From a virus (taxonomy: Duplodnaviria > Heunggongvirae > Uroviricota > Caudoviricetes), in the IMG/VR virus record IMGVR_UViG_2574180220_000003: DNA of 14,420 bases. One strand, given 5' to 3'. A program made the position numbers and the translations under genes. The notes beneath the pieces are model-generated. The model made no database searches, had not been told where the DNA came from, and worked only from the letters and a program-made list of their open reading frames with translations. This document shows, one piece after another, positions 1-7,475 of this stretch (positions are counted from its first letter, which is position 1; the number at the start of each line of letters is the position of its first letter).

Positions 1-1131
1 TCAAATGACCAGTTTTTTCCATTCCTTACCGCGTGCGTCGTTGTAAATATCGGTCATTTTTTGATTCGAATGGCCTAGCAAAATTTTGGTATCAACCCCC
101 TGCTCTCTGAACAATCGCTCTGATAAAGATCTCTGCTCATGGAAAGAGGGAGGGGTGCCATTAGCACGCCAGTTGTAATCCACAGAATCCCGGGCTTTTT
201 TAAATGCAACGGTTAATGTTGCTGGCTTAACCATCCCGCCGCGCTTAGCTGTCCCTTTCGCGTGATGGTGGTGCAATAGCCACGGACTAAGAACGCAATC
301 GCGGCAGGATGACACCACATCATCCAGGGTGAGATTTAATTTATCGCAACGCAGAGCCAGAGGGATGGCAATCCGGGTTCCTGTTTTTTGCTGTTCGACA
401 TGAAGATAACCATCCCGGATATCCGAAAATTGCATTTTGCAAATATCTGAAAGGCGCTGGCCTGTCATCAGTGCCAGCAGCATACCGCGCTGTAAAAAGT
501 AACCATCCTTTTCCGCTGCGTTATAAATCATCATCCACTCATCAAAAGTCAGTCGCTGTCTTGATATCCGCACCTGCGGTTTTTTTGCCGATTCTGCAGG
601 GTTAAAGCCTGGCGGGACATCGCCCGTTTGCTGAGCTTCCCGGAAAACATCGATCAGTACCTTCCTGAAAATTTGTCCCATTCTGTTATGTCCTCTGGCC
701 TTGTACTCTTCCAGTACTGATACCACATCTTTTACGGTTATGGCATCTAACGGTCTGGTGCCAAAACGTTCATCAAATACCCTGAGAGGGGCCGCTTTCT
801 GTTTCAGCGTGTTGAGTTTGATCTCGCCGTTTTCATATCTTTCCTGTTGAATTTTTCTGTAATTATTCAGAAAAATGGTAACGGTTGATGAACCGCCGGT
901 ATCACTAATAATTTTCTCCTGCAGACTGAGCATTTGTTCCATTTGCTGCCGGGCAAGACGGCTGTTCGCTTCTGCTGCAATAGTTTCTGCCAGTTTCTGG
1001 TCAATACTGCCGAGACCGTGATTTTTGCCTGTTATGGGATGCCTGTAACGCCAGTAAACTTTGTTATTTCTTTTGTCAAAATACGGAGATAATCCCGGAA
1101 CATTGGTTTTATATTTTCGCGGGCGCGCCAT
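1..1131 (-). CDS. int: Phage tyrosine integrase (site-specific recombinase); stop codon at 1-3, so the gene is complete at the window edge
   Basis: 376-aa ORF with the integrase-like C-terminal region (HHHAKGTAKRGG ... LLGHSNQKMTDIYND, candidate catalytic Tyr in DIYND). It is terminal in the element and immediately downstream of an excisionase-like ORF. Confidence 0.88.
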   Translation of the reverse strand: MARPRKYKTNVPGLSPYFDKRNNKVYWRYRHPITGKNHGLGSIDQKLAETIAAEANSRLARQQMEQMLSLQEKIISDTGGSSTVTIFLNNYRKIQQERYENGEIKLNTLKQKAAPLRVFDERFGTRPLDAITVKDVVSVLEEYKARGHNRMGQIFRKVLIDVFREAQQTGDVPPGFNPAESAKKPQVRISRQRLTFDEWMMIYNAAEKDGYFLQRGMLLALMTGQRLSDICKMQFSDIRDGYLHVEQQKTGTRIAIPLALRCDKLNLTLDDVVSSCRDCVLSPWLLHHHHAKGTAKRGGMVKPATLTVAFKKARDSVDYNWRANGTPPSFHEQRSLSERLFREQGVDTKILLGHSNQKMTDIYNDARGKEWKKLVI

Positions 1132-1357
1132 CTTCCAGTATCCTCTTCAAAGCAGGGTGATCTGTGGCGATCACCTCCGGCTTGTTTACCATTCCGACAA
1201 AGCGAGCTTGCGGATCCACTCGCCAGCGTCTTCCAACTTTTTTGGGGAGAGGAAATATCATTCCGGCTTTAGCGTATTTACTTAACGTACTCGGAGTTGG
1301 GACCGGTTCACTGAATTCCTCTTTTGCCCACTCAGTGAGCAGAATAAGTCTTGCCAT
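1109..1357 (-). CDS. xis: Excisionase / small DNA-binding recombination directionality factor
   Basis: 82-aa basic ORF immediately upstream of int, overlapping its start by 23 nt. It contains a KKVGRRWRV-type winged-helix motif typical of Xis proteins. Start codon uncertain (no clear SD). Confidence 0.6.
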   Translation of the reverse strand: MARLILLTEWAKEEFSEPVPTPSTLSKYAKAGMIFPLPKKVGRRWRVDPQARFVGMVNKPEVIATDHPALKRILEDGAPAKI

Positions 1358-1421
1358 GAGCGTCGTTCGCTAATCATGGTCGCCGCCACTATAGCTGGTG
1401 GGCAACGACCGGGGTTGAACA

Positions 1422-3893
1422 TTAAAAATCAGCCTGATTCGGGATCATTTTTTGCCAGATAACTGAAACGTATTTTGCCTGGTAACGGGCGTCATCAAGT
1501 GCATTATGGCGCTCACCTTCGAATGGAATAGCCGTTCTGGCATCGAAGTCTATGGCTTTCCCCAGCTCAACGATTGTGCGTACATCGCGATCGTTGTAGT
1601 AACGCCACGGGCAGGGGATCCCCTGCCGTTCGTATGAACGGCGCAAAATCGTGTTGTCGAAGTTGGCTCCATTTCCCCAGACCTGAACAAAAAATTCACC
1701 GGAGTTTTCGTCGATAAATTCCCGCAATTGTAACAGTGCATCATCTAACGGGATTTCATCGGTCATAATGGCAGACTGCGCTTCACGTGATTGCTTCAGC
1801 CACCTTTTAATGACGTCACGATCAATGACTCCGCCAGCAGTTTCCAGATCGATAGTCTTACTAAATTCCGGTCCCATATCTCCGGTTTGCGGATCGAAAA
1901 ATATTGCACCTATTGAGATAATCGGGGCATCAGGATTTTTTCCCATGGTTTCAAGGTCGATCATTAGATGGTCACACGTCCTGCTGGTGGATGTGATAAC
2001 GTGATGACCGTTCATCGCAATTAAGGGATCTGCCGTCTCGCCAGTTTCACTATCGCTGGCGTGATCCTGAGCGCTACCAGCATTCTCCTTGTGTGGATGT
2101 TCAGCGCCTTCGATTTCCTTCGGATCATTTTCCTGAACTTCAACCTGATTCTCTTCATCGAATGTTTCCTGGTATGTTGCGTCACCCATCACCGCGCCAC
2201 AATCAGGGCAGTTGCCGCCACCGCTTTGACCGCAGGCGGTGCAGACTTTTTCCGGTTCCTGTTGCGCTACTGGCTCAGGTTGTTTCGTTTCTGGCTCGTT
2301 TTGTTGCGTATTTGGGCTGTTTTGTTCCGCTTTCTGGTCGTTCTGTTCCGATTCTTGCTGGTTCTGGTTTACAGAATCGCGGGTTTCAATCCCCTTTACC
2401 CATTTCGGATCATTCGGGTCGCTAATCCCTGCAACAAATTCTCCGCGAGAGGCAGCAAGCAACTTATCGGCGTCAGGCTGGCTGATATTGGCTGCCTGCA
2501 TAATTTTGTTTACTTCGTCAGCGGTAACTTTTACCGGCTCTGGTTGTGCGGTCGTGTCAGATGCACCAGTATTTTGTTGTGAACCTGAGTACGTGCCGTT
2601 TTTACGTGCGAAGTATTCCTCTTTTGTGATTTCCGTAGCTCCCAAGGCTAGTGCTTTTTCCAGACCAGAAAGTTTGTTTGCGCGACCGTATTTTTCGCCA
2701 TCCTTGTCGGTGAAGAGGAAGTAGAACGGCCCCTCACGCTCTACAGATGGTTCGACTTCCACTTTGCATTCGGTTTTTTCGTTGCCCGGAATTGCCGTTT
2801 CCACTGCATCAGTTTCTGGTACTGGCGACGAGAGAGTATCAGTTGCGCTCTGATTTCTTCCTTCATCTTCAAACACGCCCTTTGTAGTCAGGTATTCAGT
2901 AATGTATTTGTTCAGTGCCACAGGGTCTTTGTGAATGTCGATCGGACGTTCACGGACAAGGCCAAAAATAGTCTGGCGGTCGTAGCGAAGGGCATCAGGC
3001 TGTTTGCGCATTGATGCCGAGATACGCTTCCAGTCTTCGCGGTCGTTGTCGATAACTTCATTTTTTGCCCAGCGATGGATGCTGCCGTCAATGTTTCCGG
3101 CATCCACATCACCAGGCCAGAGAGCGTAGGCCAGTTCGTCATCCAGTGTTTTCCATGTCTGCTTGTATTCGCGATGAATGGCAGCAATGACCGGGCTGAT
3201 TTTTCCTGTTGAATTTTCACTGTGCTGTTGATTGGTTCTGGCGCGGGCGAGATCAACAACAGACGTGTATTTTCCGGTTTCCTTGCGTTCACCTTCGCGA
3301 CGTTTTTTCCAGATGCGCATCTCTGCCTGAATTTCGGGCCATTTGGCACCAGGCTTACATTTATGCTTAACCCACCCGATGGCATGCAGCTTAAGCTCCG
3401 GATACATGGCGTTAACTTCTGGCATTTTCATCAACGCTTCAACGATATGGCCGTCGAATGTTGCCATGTCTTCCTGCAACAATTCCTGTGCGCTAATAAC
3501 CATATCAACGGTGATGTTTTCACATGTGTCGAACTTAACCATGACAGCGTTCTGTACTTCAGGGGCCAGCTTGTCAAAAGTGACGTTCATCGGATCGGAT
3601 TCAGTCTCAACCGGGACAAAGGAAGCAGACTCCTCATCCCAGCGGTTTTCCTGCATATATTCAGCATCCCAGGAATCGAGGGCAGGGCGGGGTATACCGG
3701 GTTTATCCTCGCAGACAAGAAATTTATAAGCGCAGTCCTGAGCAGCCGGATAATGTTCCAGGAATTGCCAGTGAAATTTTGCGCGGGCGCGACGTTCATC
3801 ACCGGCTTCAATGGCAGTGGCTACAGCGACGGCACCTTCTTCCTTTATTGCCTGTTCGTCCGGAATGGCGGCGCAAATAAAGACTTTACTCAT
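1422..3893 (-). CDS. Large recombination exonuclease-like protein ('exodeoxyribonuclease VIII'-type annotation) with C-terminal DEDDh (DnaQ-like) 3'-5' exonuclease domain
   Basis: 823-aa ORF with SD GAGG about 11 nt upstream of the ATG at 3893. C-terminal motifs DLETMG (Exo I), WGNGANFD (Exo II) and HNALDDARY (Exo III). Central CTACGQSGGGNCPDCG zinc-ribbon-like motif and a Q/E/P-rich low-complexity linker. Position in the leftward operon matches a phage recombination gene. Confidence 0.75.
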   Translation of the reverse strand: MSKVFICAAIPDEQAIKEEGAVAVATAIEAGDERRARAKFHWQFLEHYPAAQDCAYKFLVCEDKPGIPRPALDSWDAEYMQENRWDEESASFVPVETESDPMNVTFDKLAPEVQNAVMVKFDTCENITVDMVISAQELLQEDMATFDGHIVEALMKMPEVNAMYPELKLHAIGWVKHKCKPGAKWPEIQAEMRIWKKRREGERKETGKYTSVVDLARARTNQQHSENSTGKISPVIAAIHREYKQTWKTLDDELAYALWPGDVDAGNIDGSIHRWAKNEVIDNDREDWKRISASMRKQPDALRYDRQTIFGLVRERPIDIHKDPVALNKYITEYLTTKGVFEDEGRNQSATDTLSSPVPETDAVETAIPGNEKTECKVEVEPSVEREGPFYFLFTDKDGEKYGRANKLSGLEKALALGATEITKEEYFARKNGTYSGSQQNTGASDTTAQPEPVKVTADEVNKIMQAANISQPDADKLLAASRGEFVAGISDPNDPKWVKGIETRDSVNQNQQESEQNDQKAEQNSPNTQQNEPETKQPEPVAQQEPEKVCTACGQSGGGNCPDCGAVMGDATYQETFDEENQVEVQENDPKEIEGAEHPHKENAGSAQDHASDSETGETADPLIAMNGHHVITSTSRTCDHLMIDLETMGKNPDAPIISIGAIFFDPQTGDMGPEFSKTIDLETAGGVIDRDVIKRWLKQSREAQSAIMTDEIPLDDALLQLREFIDENSGEFFVQVWGNGANFDNTILRRSYERQGIPCPWRYYNDRDVRTIVELGKAIDFDARTAIPFEGERHNALDDARYQAKYVSVIWQKMIPNQADF
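2239..2400. repeat. Imperfect short tandem/low-complexity DNA repeats inside the exonuclease gene (encode the Q/E/N/P-rich linker)
   Basis: Repeated variants of ctggttc/gtttcgtttctggctcgtt visible by eye; the minus-strand translation gives ...QNQQESEQNDQKAEQNSPNTQQNEPETKQPEPVAQQEPEKV... Confidence 0.4.
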
Positions 3894-3985
3894 TTTGTTT
3901 TACCTCATTACAGATTTAAGGGTGAACAAATCCCTGCCATTGCTGGCATATAAGAATGAAACCGGATATTTATTACGGAACTGTT

Positions 3986-4177
3986 TTAAAGACCTGCCGG
4001 GATTTCGTTATTATCCTGGTGAATAACTTTATCGACCGGGTAACAGTTACCGGGAATTTTCTGTTCGGTTGCTGCAGTCACACACTCCTGCATTGTCCTG
4101 TGAACACTGACTGCAATATCAACTGGCTCTCCGGAAACAAGAAAAACTGTCAGAACAAGTGCAAATGCTGTATTCAT
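3986..4177 (-). CDS. Hypothetical small protein (63 aa) with N-terminal hydrophobic segment (signal peptide or membrane anchor); possible Kil/exclusion-type accessory protein
   Basis: ATG at 4175-4177 (minus strand) overlaps the stop of the upstream gene in an ATGA arrangement. Sequence MNTAFALVLTVFLVSGEP... carries a hydrophobic core; the mature part has 2 Cys. An alternative start 9 nt upstream (MLAMNT...) is possible. Confidence 0.35.
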   Translation of the reverse strand: MNTAFALVLTVFLVSGEPVDIAVSVHRTMQECVTAATEQKIPGNCYPVDKVIHQDNNEIPAGL

Positions 4178-4362
4178 TGCCAGCATCCTTTTTGTATCGG
4201 ACGTAAACGGGCCAGCATTGAAAGAATGCATATTTTATTTAATAGCTCCCGTTCGTGTTTTCTCTTGTTAATGGCATCTTCAGTAAATACAGGGTTACTG
4301 ATAGTGACACCAATTTCAAAACAACCTTCAGACGTATTAACGTTTGGTAATAACGTTTCCAT
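4174..4362 (-). CDS. Hypothetical small protein (62 aa), first gene of the leftward operon
   Basis: Internal ATG at 4360-4362 (minus strand) preceded by SD GAGGA about 8 nt upstream. Translationally coupled (ATGA) to the downstream small gene. No recognisable motif. Confidence 0.35.
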   Translation of the reverse strand: METLLPNVNTSEGCFEIGVTISNPVFTEDAINKRKHERELLNKICILSMLARLRPIQKGCWQ

Positions 4363-4718
4363 TATCGCGTCCTCAACAATGAATTTTGTGATGCGGTGCC
4401 TGGTGCCTCCAGGTGACGTTAACCAGTTAACAATTAACGCCGGATACAGAGAATCCACCCATAACACTGTTTTTGGTTTTAACTGTTCCGCGTGCGCTCA
4501 GCCGCATTCACCACATCACAAAATTCACTTTAAAAAGGGCGGCAGAGCAGTCACGGAGTAAAACTGATACCGCCAAACGTCACCAGAAAATTGATAACAG
4601 AGGGCGTTGCAGCGGGGTTGTCACTTAAGCGTATGGTCAACCTGACAACCCGGTGTCCTCAACGGGGGAAGGAATACCGGAACTCGGTCTGGTTATCGTT
4701 AAGCCAGGCCGTGAATCA

Positions 4719-5702
4719 ATGTCAGCATTCCATAACGGCAGAATACTGGTGGAGCCGGAATCAAAAAGCATGCGTAATCTGCCGTCCGGGGTCGTTCCTG
4801 CCGCTCGCCAGCCGCTGGTGGAAGACAAAACATTGCTGCCGTTTTTCAGTAACGCACGGGTGATTCGTGCTGCTGGTGGTGCTGGTGCATTGTCTGACTG
4901 GCTGTTGCGCCATATTAAATCCTGCCAGTGGCCACACGGCGATTATCATCACAGCGAAACCGTCATTCACCGTTATGGTACCGGCGCAATGGTGTTGTGC
5001 TGGCACTGCGACAACCAGCTGCGTGACCAGACATCCGAATCACTCGAGCAACTTGCTCATCAAAACCTGTCAGCATGGATGATTGACGTCATCGGTCACG
5101 CAATAAGCGGTACGCAGGAGCGTGAATTATCTTTGGCTGAATTATCCTGGTGGGCGGTCCGCAATCAGGTGGCGGACGCGCTACCGGAAGCGGTATTACG
5201 TCGTTCGCTGGGGTTGCGTGCGGAAAAAATCCGCTCAATGTACCGTGAAAGCGACATCGTACCGGGAGAGCAGACCGCCACCAGCATACTGAAGCAGCGC
5301 ACAAAAAATCTTGCGCCGCTGCCTCACGCCCACCAGCAAACCCCGCCACAGGAAAAGACGGTGGTCAGCATTGCCGTTGATCCGGAGTCACCGGCTCAGT
5401 ATCTCCAGCGCCAGAAATCACAACGGGAAGAGATGCCTGTATACACGCGTTGGGTAAAAACGCAGAAATGCATGACGTGTGGCAATCAGGCAGATGATCC
5501 GCATCACATCATTGGTCATGGACTGGGAGGGATGGGAACAAAGGCTGATGATTTGTTTGTTATTCCGCTGTGCCGTAAATGCCATAGCGAACTACACGCC
5601 GGGGTAAAAGATTTTGAAGAAAAACACGGCAGCCAGCTGTTGTTGCTGATTCGTTTTTTAATGCACGCGAGAAATTCGGGTGTTCTGAAGTGGAAAGCAT
5701 AA
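4719..5702 (+). CDS. DUF968-like nin-region protein with C-terminal Cys/His (HNH-like) motif; start uncertain (the ORF track extends to a GTG at 4653)
   Basis: Long ORF ending in CMTCGNQADDPHHIIGH...CRKCHSELH, a Cys/His cluster resembling those of lambdoid DUF968/YdfU-type proteins (from memory). Its stop abuts the rusA ATG (TAAATG). Candidate starts are ATG 4719 or ATG 4767. Confidence 0.65.
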   Translation: MSAFHNGRILVEPESKSMRNLPSGVVPAARQPLVEDKTLLPFFSNARVIRAAGGAGALSDWLLRHIKSCQWPHGDYHHSETVIHRYGTGAMVLCWHCDNQLRDQTSESLEQLAHQNLSAWMIDVIGHAISGTQERELSLAELSWWAVRNQVADALPEAVLRRSLGLRAEKIRSMYRESDIVPGEQTATSILKQRTKNLAPLPHAHQQTPPQEKTVVSIAVDPESPAQYLQRQKSQREEMPVYTRWVKTQKCMTCGNQADDPHHIIGHGLGGMGTKADDLFVIPLCRKCHSELHAGVKDFEEKHGSQLLLLIRFLMHARNSGVLKWKA

Positions 5703-6083
5703 ATGACTGAACGCATAGAATTTGTTTTGCCTTACCCGCCAACGGTGAACACTTACTGGCGACGCCGTGGCAGCACATATTTTATCTCGGAGGAGGGAAA
5801 GCGTTATCGCCGGGCTGTGGCGCTTATTGTTCGCCAGCAGCGGCTGAAATTAAGCCTGTCCGGAAGGCTGGCGATAAAGGTGATTGCAGAGCCACCGGAT
5901 AAGCGTCGTCGCGACCTGGACAATATCCTGAAAGCACCGCTGGATGCGCTGACGCATGCGGGAGTGTTAATGGACGATGAGCAGTTTGATGAAATCAATA
6001 TCGTTCGTGGTCAGCCAGTATCTGGTGGACGTATGGGGGTGAAGATTTACCCCATAATGCATGAAGAGCAGGTCAAAAAATGA
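5703..6083 (+). CDS. rusA: RusA-family Holliday junction resolvase (crossover junction endodeoxyribonuclease)
   Basis: 126-aa ORF with LPYPPTVNTYWRRRG ... PDKRRRDLDNILKAPLDALTHAGVLMDDEQ, matching the RusA pattern including the catalytic acidic cluster. Position immediately upstream of Q is as in lambdoid nin regions. Confidence 0.88.
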   Translation: MTERIEFVLPYPPTVNTYWRRRGSTYFISEEGKRYRRAVALIVRQQRLKLSLSGRLAIKVIAEPPDKRRRDLDNILKAPLDALTHAGVLMDDEQFDEINIVRGQPVSGGRMGVKIYPIMHEEQVKK

Positions 6084-6901
6084 AACTGGAAGATTTACCG
6101 AAATACTACTCCCCAAAATCCCCCGGCCTGACTGATGCATCGGCCTCAACGTCGAAAGATGCGCTGAGTATCACTGATGTGATGGCCGCGCAGGGCATGA
6201 CACAGAATCGGGCTGAGATGGGGTTTTCTGCGTTCCTTGGGAAAATGGGCATTAGTATGAATGACAGAGAGCGGGCAACAGAATTGCTGACAGAATATGC
6301 ACTCAGTCGGTGTGATCGCGTGGCGGCGTTAAGAAAACTCCCGGCAGAAATAAAACCGGTAGTGATGCGCATTATGGCTTCGTACGCTTTTGAGGATTAT
6401 GCCCGCAGCGCAGCGAGTAAAAAGCAGTGCCCTTGTTGCGATGGGGAAAAATTTATTGAAAGCGTAGTTTTTACAAACAAGGTCCAGTATCCGGATGGTA
6501 AGCCACCAGTGTGGGCAAAGTGCACAAAAGGCGTGTATCCGTCTTACTGGGAAGAATGGAAAAAAGTCAGGGAGGTGGTAAAAGTTGCCTGTCCGGAGTG
6601 TGGCGGAAAGGGTGAGGTTTCCACCGCCTGTAAGGATTGCCGTGGGCGTGGTGTCGCCATTCATCGTGAAGAGTCGGTAAAACGTGGTATGCCTGTTATC
6701 AGAGATTGCCAGCGTTGTGGTGGTCGTGGCTGTGAAAGGCTGCCATCAACGGAGGCATTTAATGCCATATGCAAAGTGACGAGTGCTATCACGCTTGATA
6801 CGTGGAAAAAATCAGTGAAACGCTTTTACGATACGTTGGTGGTTCGGTTTGACATTGAAGAGGCATGGGCGGAGCGGCAGTTAAAGAGGGTAACGCGATA
6901 G
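6080..6901 (+). CDS. Q: Late-gene antiterminator, lambda Q family, with extra CxxC zinc-ribbon insertions
   Basis: Start overlaps the rusA stop (ATGA). N-terminal YYSPKSP ... ITDVMAAQGM and C-terminal FYDTLVV ... RVTR resemble lambda Q as recalled from memory. Multiple CxxC pairs (CPCCDG, CPECGG, CKDCRG, CQRCGG). Followed directly by a PR'-like promoter. Confidence 0.82.
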   Translation: MKLEDLPKYYSPKSPGLTDASASTSKDALSITDVMAAQGMTQNRAEMGFSAFLGKMGISMNDRERATELLTEYALSRCDRVAALRKLPAEIKPVVMRIMASYAFEDYARSAASKKQCPCCDGEKFIESVVFTNKVQYPDGKPPVWAKCTKGVYPSYWEEWKKVREVVKVACPECGGKGEVSTACKDCRGRGVAIHREESVKRGMPVIRDCQRCGGRGCERLPSTEAFNAICKVTSAITLDTWKKSVKRFYDTLVVRFDIEEAWAERQLKRVTR

Positions 6902-6906
6902 TGTTG

Positions 6907-6950
6907 TTGATTTTTCCCGAATCTGTGGTAAATTTGCTCTAACGATGGGC
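6907..6950 (+). promoter_or_regulatory. Lambda PR'-like late promoter with probable qut site / sigma70 pause element
   Basis: -35 TTGATT (6907-6912), 16-bp spacer with TGn, -10 TAAATT (6929-6934), followed by ...GCTCTAACGATGGG, which closely resembles lambda PR' GGGTAAATTTGACTCAACGATGGG (from memory), including the AACGAT pause-inducing element. Confidence 0.6.
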
Positions 6951-6982
6951 GTTTTATGCCTGACGTTAGAAGATTTTTTACA

Positions 6983-7007
6983 CCCCGCCGCCTGGCGGGG
7001 TTTTTAT
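6983..7007 (+). terminator. Intrinsic terminator (tR'-like) ending a short late leader transcript
   Basis: 7-bp GC stem ccccgcc/ggcgggg with 4-nt loop, followed by TTTTTAT. Confidence 0.65.
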
Positions 7008-7127
7008 AACTGAAATCGCGTCAGTACAGTAAACGCGCTGGTGGCGGTGAATACCTGTCTTTCAGCTTGCTGGCTTTTTCGACAAGAGTTATTGGTGTGT
7101 CACGTTAACCGGAAAAGGGAAAAAGAC

Positions 7128-7325
7128 ATGCTGAAACAGCAGGATATGACAGAAACCGCCAGAGTGGTGTTTAATGAATTAAGCGTTACCGAACCGGCGA
7201 CAGTCGGGGAGATAGCGCAGAATACTTACCTTTCACGCGAACGCTGCCAGTTAATACTGACCCAGCTGGTTATGGCGGGTCTGGCAGACTATCAGTTCGG
7301 TTGTTACAGACGCCTTCCGCAGTGA
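7128..7325 (+). CDS. Hypothetical small helix-turn-helix-like protein (66 aa)
   Basis: ATG at 7128 with SD AAGGGA about 8 nt upstream. The segment ATVGEIAQNTYLSRERCQLILTQLVMAGL looks like a (winged) HTH. The ORF track's longer 7041 start lacks an RBS. Confidence 0.45.
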   Translation: MLKQQDMTETARVVFNELSVTEPATVGEIAQNTYLSRERCQLILTQLVMAGLADYQFGCYRRLPQ

Positions 7326-7336
7326 AGGCTTTTTTA
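7312..7336 (+). terminator. Possible intrinsic terminator overlapping the stop codon of the small HTH ORF
   Basis: Stem gccttc/gaaggc (6 bp, 6-nt loop) followed by TTTTTTA. Confidence 0.4.
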
Positions 7337-7352
7337 TTTGTGGTAAATGGGC

Positions 7353-7383
7353 GGCTGGTGGGTGTTAGGGGCACCCACCAGCC
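7353..7383. repeat. Perfect 12-bp inverted repeat (ggctggtgggtg / cacccaccagcc) with 7-nt spacer
   Basis: Read directly from the sequence; no T-tract follows. Lies between the small HTH ORF and the methyltransferase gene. Confidence 0.7.
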
Positions 7384-7475
7384 ATCTGCTCATGCGTTGG
7401 GTTCACAAGCAAACCTCAGGCCCACTGCTTTGCGCAAAAGCAGAATGAGCCTATCAGAGACAGGCTTAATGATCC

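Follow-up and report, generated by a model that had tools for sequence, protein, structure and literature searches.

Immediately upstream of an exonuclease gene, two small genes run leftward and overlap by four nucleotides in a phage-derived stretch of 14,420 nucleotides (IMG/VR record IMGVR_UViG_2574180220_000003; this whole stretch is hereafter the window). What do these genes encode, and are they still expressed in the place where they now lie? An earlier note on the same DNA had read them as accessory genes of the kil/cIII/sieB type in the pL operon of a lambdoid phage, with a host-killing or exclusion function, and had recognised neither ORF. To judge from their sequences, it is virtually certain that they are dicB and ydfD, which close a dicBF-type operon (dicF-dicB-ydfD) as its last two intact genes, in a lambdoid prophage beside ompW. 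Both are already known as named, experimentally studied genes. What is unusual about the copy in the window is only the loss of its promoter and repressor by deletion. The whole explanation, which joins this identity to a mechanism transferred from K-12 and to the probable silence of the window copy, is in our judgement very likely to be right.

The product of the first ORF matches the Pfam family PF05358 from end to end (positions 1-62 of 62, E = 1.7e-37, 127.4 bits against a cut-off of 27) and the NCBIfam model NF049927 ('cell division inhibition protein DicB') with 132.7 bits (cut-off 100). Strain 300709 has the very same protein (WP_000449192.1, 100% identity), there annotated as dicB, and identity with the K-12-type (Qin) DicB is 89%. 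Similarly, the product of the second ORF matches PF07358/DUF1482 (model positions 1-57 of 57, E = 3.7e-25, 88 bits against a cut-off of 25) and PHROG 1092 (positions 1-63 of 63, E = 2e-37); it is 100% identical to WP_001090200.1 and to the annotated ydfD of strain 300709, and shares 94% identity with WP_001083297.1, the 'lysis protein YdfD' of the K-12 type. Remote-homology searches of Pfam, NCBIfam and PHROG thus place both ORFs in families, and the RefSeq annotation of identical copies names them dicB and ydfD, so they are by no means unrecognisable. Within the Pfam scan (E up to 0.1), only DicB, DUF1482 and one unrelated sub-threshold match were returned, with no match to the lambda Kil, CIII or SieB families. 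The earlier comparison with kil, cIII and sieB was right about the kind of function and, in intact relatives, about the pL-type position, but wrong about family membership.

Table 1. Coordinates of the features of the window, with strand and the basis of each entry.
Feature	Coordinates	Strand	Details
dicB (ORF1)	4174..4362	-	62 aa; ATG at 4362, TGA 4176-4174, stop codon included; METLLPNV...GCWQ; read from sequence
ydfD (ORF2)	3986..4177	-	63 aa; ATG 4177-4175, TAA 3988-3986, stop codon included; MNTAFALVLTVFLVSG...PAGL; read from sequence
ATGA stop/start overlap (dicB TGA and ydfD ATG)	4174..4177	-	read from sequence
Shine-Dalgarno GAGGA of dicB	4370..4374	-	7 nt before ATG; read from sequence
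Shine-Dalgarno-like AAGGA of ydfD, within the 3′ end of dicB	4186..4190	-	8 nt before ATG; read from sequence
DicF sRNA gene, full length	4537..4588	-	Rfam RF00039, 76.7 bits (gathering score 48); model 1-52 of 52, untruncated; 174 nt upstream of dicB
Hairpin TGCCAGCAATGGCA and T-rich tail	3935..3948	-	38 nt after the ydfD stop; terminator-like scan
Exonuclease gene, next downstream	1422..3893	-	823 aa; PF16473 Rv2179c-like 3′-5′ exonuclease, residues 642-813, E = 3.1e-63
Deletion junction	4675..4676	.	window 1-4676 = L004 501-5176; window 4675-11097 = L004 12311-18734 (BLAST)
Two tRNAs (Ile, Arg per relatives' annotation)	8575-8647; 8751-8824	+	Rfam, above gathering scores
STnc100 sRNA, downstream of Q-like gene	9524-9713	+	Rfam, 132 bits, above gathering score
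IS009, inside tail-fibre-assembly region	12845-13043	+	Rfam, 224 bits, above gathering score

Read on the minus strand, the coordinates, the sizes of 62 and 63 codons, the ATGA overlap, the Shine-Dalgarno sequence of dicB and the hydrophobic N-terminus of the second ORF all agree exactly with the earlier note (Table 1). The AAGGA that ydfD has of its own is absent from that note. The overlap suggests that translation of ydfD is probably coupled to that of dicB; this coupling is uncertain, since ydfD also has its own AAGGA. A 4-nt overlap of the same type is found in four of the compared records (L002, L005, L007 and, as GTGA, L006). Frame length and the 4-nt overlap (ATGA or GTGA) survive 16-50% protein divergence among the K-12-type, mEp460, PPompW and Klebsiella phage copies, and the frames are thus conserved in homologous loci. 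Together with the full-length family matches, this conservation indicates that the leftward overlapping genes just upstream of the exonuclease gene are real. Counts of changes by codon position, made against L002, L013 and L006, show many non-synonymous changes in both dicB and ydfD and point to fast evolution; such counts alone are no proof of purifying selection, and it is the conservation of frame and length and the family models, rather than these counts, that identify dicB and ydfD as real genes. The mechanical ORF list gives longer versions, of 97 aa from GTG 4467 and of 81 aa from ATG 4231. The 81-aa version of ydfD, which some metagenome gene callers use, was rejected on the basis of a stop codon or a missing start directly upstream of the conserved Met/Val in L013, L011 and L006; the RefSeq annotation uses the 63-aa form.

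The order dicF-dicB-ydfD is that of the Qin prophage of E. coli K-12. With DicF upstream and the exonuclease gene, xis and int downstream, the synteny also matches mEp460 and PPompW as well as Qin. In intact relatives, dicB and ydfD belong to a pL-type operon that leads from the immunity region, with its cI/cro-type switch, towards exo-xis-int, and the promoter of this operon in K-12, dicBp, is similar to lambda pL (PMC6832061, PMC10448788). The 823-aa protein encoded next downstream is annotated as an exonuclease in relatives. Its sole recognised domain is the C-terminal Rv2179c-like DEDD 3′-5′ exonuclease, and Pfam finds none in the first ~640 residues; its counterpart in K-12 Qin is truncated by IS2. 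Between ydfD and this gene, the terminator-like scan marked a hairpin with a T-rich tail, in a region where terminator-like sites are no more frequent than in shuffles (Table 1). The exact 14-mer of the hairpin occurs at the same place in L002, L005, L006 and L013, and it is kept exactly even in PPompW, whose ydfD-like protein is 50% identical. It is possible that this hairpin forms the 3′ end of the dicFB-ydfD transcript. The K-12 operon yields a ydfABC-dicFB-ydfD transcript, and no longer species was detectable (PMC10448788).

Matches to positions 3900-4650 were found by megablast in 4662 of the 5426 complete E. coli genomes, in which RefSeq labels the genes 'dicB: cell division inhibition protein DicB' and 'ydfD: DUF1482 family protein' or 'lysis protein YdfD'. 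The locus is present in active lambdoid phages too. A dicB homologue with a ydfD homologue beside it is found in 20 phage records, every one of them from Escherichia (e.g., mEp460_ev081, Tritos and PPompW phages), and YdfD-like proteins occur in 28 phage records, eight of which are Klebsiella, Citrobacter or Salmonella phages without a detectable DicB. At 41-50% protein identity, the ydfD length of 62-63 codons, the 4-nt overlap and the place directly before the exonuclease gene or gene cluster are all kept. In two Klebsiella phages (L007:2891-3192 and L010:1391-1692), a DUF1482 gene without a DicB homologue follows an unrelated 37-aa ORF with an ATGA overlap, and downstream of it come a small 'DNA breaking-rejoining protein' gene and exodeoxyribonuclease VIII. 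Thus, the partner differs between genera and the overlap is kept. A search of 5.8 billion proteins gave 282 DUF1482 clusters, a part of which bear the name YebW family; a literature search on DUF1482 by name found no papers.

The functions of both genes have been studied in K-12. MinC, once bound by DicB, is brought via ZipA to the septum, where it depolymerises the Z ring, and DicF represses the translation of ftsZ (PMC6832061, PMC10448788). Short-term expression of dicBF cuts lambda infection; DicB is responsible for this effect, which requires that DicB interact with MinC and is exerted at the ManYZ-dependent entry of DNA (PMC6832061). Induction of YdfD results in lysis which, in the account that PMC8835842 gives in citing Masuda 2016, is abolished by co-expression of dicB or sulA and is hence division-dependent. 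The toxicity of YdfD has been confirmed independently (PMC9782134), and its binding to IspG has been reported from pull-down, SEC, ITC and FRET experiments, with rescue by ispG overexpression or HMBPP (Lu et al., PMC8835842). Host killing or exclusion, the type of function expected from position, is therefore what has been found experimentally for the K-12 orthologues (DicB, PMC6832061; YdfD, PMC8835842, PMC9782134). In this case, positional reasoning, by which small leftward genes of early operons tend towards host killing or exclusion, gave the right kind of answer.

By analogy with the Qin orthologue of K-12, the 62-aa DicB would bind MinC and bring it via ZipA to the septal ring, where FtsZ would be depolymerised and filamentation would follow. 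Acting via MinC, it may also impair the inner-membrane proteins ManYZ and block the injection of lambda-like DNA, which amounts to superinfection exclusion. With 89% identity between the two proteins, MinC binding, ZipA-dependent division inhibition and ManYZ-dependent exclusion are all expected of the DicB in the window. The 63-aa YdfD, with a hydrophobic N-terminal segment and an acidic C-terminal domain, would by the same analogy lyse cells only if they are dividing; it would bind to IspG and inhibit this enzyme of the MEP isoprenoid pathway, and envelope synthesis would be starved of lipid carrier. Co-expressed DicB would prevent lysis by YdfD, and the conserved 4-nt overlap would tie the synthesis of YdfD to that of DicB, such that the net output of the operon should be filamentation and exclusion rather than lysis. 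The DicB and YdfD variants of the window are assumed to be active. For K-12 YdfD, both halves of the protein are needed for full activity, trimming either terminus costs activity, and even one-residue truncations weaken it (Lu et al., PMC8835842).

The second question, whether the genes are still expressed, turns on the deletion junction upstream of dicF. Compared with L004, 7.1 kb are missing from the window (L004:5177-12310), with a 2-nt microhomology at the junction. The missing segment of L004 carries ydfC, ydfB, a ydfA-like (DUF1391) gene, the pL-like promoter (dicBp) and a LexA-family CI-type repressor, and also cro, ydaT, the genes for replication, hokD and the initial 28 nt of the DUF968 gene. 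The deletion ends 88 nt upstream of DicF, and the dicF-dicB spacer is retained. A 241-nt query spanning the junction was matched at a coverage of at least 80% in 0 of the 5426 complete E. coli genomes, and exact 33-mer and 21-mer searches of the GTDB species representatives did not find the junction either. The loss of the promoter had escaped the earlier note.

In K-12, transcription of the whole operon starts at dicBp, which precedes ydfA, and an internal promoter was not found by primer extension and Northern blots (PMC10448788). On the minus strand of the window, no sigma-70-like site scoring at least 9/12 was found between 3850 and 5300, and only 8/12 sites lie between 4363 and 5000. The promoter-like scan offered nothing convincing as a replacement promoter for dicF-dicB-ydfD. 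Since the ~7 kb deletion took away the pL-like promoter and no good sigma-70-like site is left, we infer that dicF-dicB-ydfD in the window is intact but probably transcriptionally silent.

The same genes could still be expressed, either from a promoter inside the operon, ahead of dicF or of dicB, or by read-through antisense to the DUF968, rusA and Q genes, and would then yield DicF, DicB and YdfD at a low constitutive level. With the repressor gone, their synthesis would be unregulated and might result, for example, in a permanent low-level phage exclusion. According to the passage of PMC11430063 that cites it, RegulonDB lists two further promoters, of which one precedes dicF and the other dicB; if these internal promoters are real, the window copy need not be silent. 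The dicF-dicB spacer and the 88 nt upstream of dicF, which are both retained, would leave room for them, a weak 8/12 promoter-like site lies at 4554-4527 (-), and both ORFs are intact, their products being 100% identical to copies in intact prophages. However, primer extension and Northern blots show no promoter within the operon (PMC10448788), the scan gave no 9/12 site on the minus strand, and all the upstream neighbour genes lie on the opposite strand. The intactness of the ORFs, moreover, is explicable by a recent deletion. We therefore regard continued expression as unlikely, if by no means negligible. If it were true, the deletion, which is unique to the window, could have made a repressor-free, weakly constitutive dicF-dicB-ydfD module, domesticated by the host for phage exclusion, although this is very doubtful. 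The joint loss of promoter and repressor is the pattern to be expected if loss of the repressor alone would unleash lethal genes, and it is the viable route to losing the repressor of an operon with three toxic products.

The whole of the 14.4 kb window is what extensive deletion has left of a prophage, with ompW on one side and a partial duplicate of ompW on the other. It begins with int (1-1131), xis and the exonuclease gene (1422-3893), followed by ydfD, dicB, dicF and the junction at 4675/4676. Beyond the junction are the 5′-truncated DUF968 gene, rusA, a Q-like antiterminator gene, a DNA methyltransferase gene, tRNA-Ile, tRNA-Arg and iraM, then a second junction near 10561-11097 and, after it, tail-fibre remnants. 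The DUF968/HNH-like gene (4653-5702, +) has lost its first 28 nt and now reads from GTG 4653 in the DNA next to dicF, with a new N-terminus (MSSTGEGI...) and no visible Shine-Dalgarno sequence; this GTG is probably a dead chimeric start. At the second deletion (~10561-11097), a SASA-family (NanS-like) esterase gene has kept its 5′ part, now joined to the 3′ part of the gene annotated in L003 as 'terminase gpA endonuclease subunit'. The lysis cassette and the terminase small subunit of L003 are missing from the window.

The hydrophobic N-terminus of YdfD raises the further question of where the protein acts. Residues 1-15 have a mean Kyte-Doolittle value of 1.96, the highest in the protein, and the hydropathy maximum falls at residues 1-15 in all the homologues compared, so that the segment is kept even in distant ones. 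Its hydrophobic core is AFALVLTVFLV, and its uninterrupted hydrophobic run of ~13 residues is followed by G-E-P-x-D; the n-region is without Lys or Arg, and VSG/E fits the -3/-1 rule of signal peptidase, as read from the sequence. The hydrophobic N-terminus is real and conserved and may be a signal peptide or a membrane anchor, but it lacks a positively charged n-region and its run has only ~13 residues. AlphaFold2, with 64 sequences, predicts helices at 3-15 and 19-38 at moderate confidence only (pLDDT 70.9, pTM 0.45), too low to tell a transmembrane from a soluble protein, and a profile search of the PDB at E up to 1 found no match to a solved relative. Masuda et al. reportedly described in 2016 a hydrophobic N-terminal domain of 22 residues in YdfD and proposed membrane association.

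Ten residues are invariant in nine diverse YdfD-like sequences (L7, V8, G16, C32, E38, Q39, C45, P47, P60 and A61). The pair C32/C45 is thus kept across nine copies with identities of 36-100%, taken from phages of Escherichia, Citrobacter, Salmonella and Klebsiella, and C-x12-C is found in 112 of 120 database clusters. A C45S allele (protein P0004; codon 4045-4043, -), with no other difference from the window protein, forms a cluster of 1053 member sequences and may be a common, attenuated form of the toxin. The invariant cysteine pair hints at an exported, disulfide-bonded domain, and such a domain would fit poorly with IspG as a cytoplasmic target. YdfD would then act at or across the inner membrane, with the N-terminal segment as an export signal or anchor, a periplasmic C-terminal domain bearing a C32-C45 disulfide and, as target, a division-linked step of envelope synthesis, as with other single-gene lysis proteins. 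Besides the cysteines, the conserved hydrophobic N-terminus, the fit of VSG/E to the -3/-1 rule and the need of YdfD lysis for ongoing cell division (in the account of Masuda 2016 cited by PMC8835842) would all agree with such a location. Set against it are the uncharged n-region and short hydrophobic run, the very common C45S allele (1053 member sequences), which may itself be inactive, and the binding of IspG in pull-down, SEC, ITC and FRET experiments and the rescue by ispG overexpression or HMBPP (PMC8835842); the two-helix hairpin predicted by AlphaFold2 (pLDDT 71) also speaks against it, but is not decisive. An action at or across the membrane instead of on cytoplasmic IspG is in our view quite unlikely, and it is very doubtful that YdfD kills from the periplasmic face at a division-linked envelope step and that the published IspG mechanism is incomplete or wrong. 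That mechanism comes from the pull-down, ITC, FRET and rescue data of one laboratory, without enzyme kinetics (PMC8835842). The cysteine pair, set against a cytoplasmic target, offers a modest lead for research on small phage toxins.

It is hardly conceivable that the dicB and ydfD frames are chance or that the true gene is the antisense ORF (3956-4561, +), which is long (201 aa) and lies opposite ydfD, dicB and dicF, because length and overlap of both minus-strand frames persist at 16-50% divergence and both give end-to-end matches to curated family models, whereas the antisense frame is interrupted elsewhere (longest 129 aa in L002, 122 aa in L013 and 103 aa in L006). Only the window and relatives nearly identical to it keep this ORF open, and it was rejected as a chance ORF.

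The main use of the dicB and ydfD result is thus the correct annotation of the window; the locus is present in most complete E. coli genomes, and its discovery value is little. Compared with its counterpart in Qin, the DicB of the window has the same length of 62 aa, the same place between DicF and ydfD and the same 4-nt overlap, but differs at seven of the 62 residues (E2/K2, H36/Q36, L47/V47 and the C-terminal residues 55-57 and 61), mostly within the C-terminal eight. The prophage that carries it lies at ompW and not at the Qin site, and the DicA-type repressor and dicBp are deleted here. Like Qin YdfD, the YdfD of the window has 63 aa, a hydrophobic N-terminus, C-x12-C, the C-terminus PAGL and a place directly after dicB with the ATGA overlap, and it differs by four of the 63 residues (T3/S3, A6/V6, V33/M33 and N57/I57). 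The DUF1482/PF07358 family to which Qin YdfD belongs also includes YebW.

Both proteins have parallels beyond Qin. Haeusser et al. are said to have found in 2014 that lambda Kil blocks FtsZ-ring assembly in a ZipA-linked way. DicB is likewise a small pL-operon protein that blocks FtsZ-ring assembly with a link to ZipA (for DicB, PMC6832061), a character shared with lambda Kil and Rac KilR; it differs from them in that there is no sequence relationship (Pfam finds DicB only) and in that it acts via MinC, not directly on FtsZ. YdfD, in turn, resembles the single-gene lysis proteins phiX174 E, Qbeta A2 and LysM. It is small, has a hydrophobic N-terminus and lyses growing or dividing cells, and it blocks the supply of envelope precursors rather than degrading murein (PMC8835842). 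In contrast to these proteins, YdfD belongs to a lambdoid prophage with a dsDNA genome, in which a separate holin-endolysin cassette is, or was, present; the target reported for YdfD is IspG and not MurA, MraY or MurJ, and its gene lies in the early-left operon, outside the lysis cassette.
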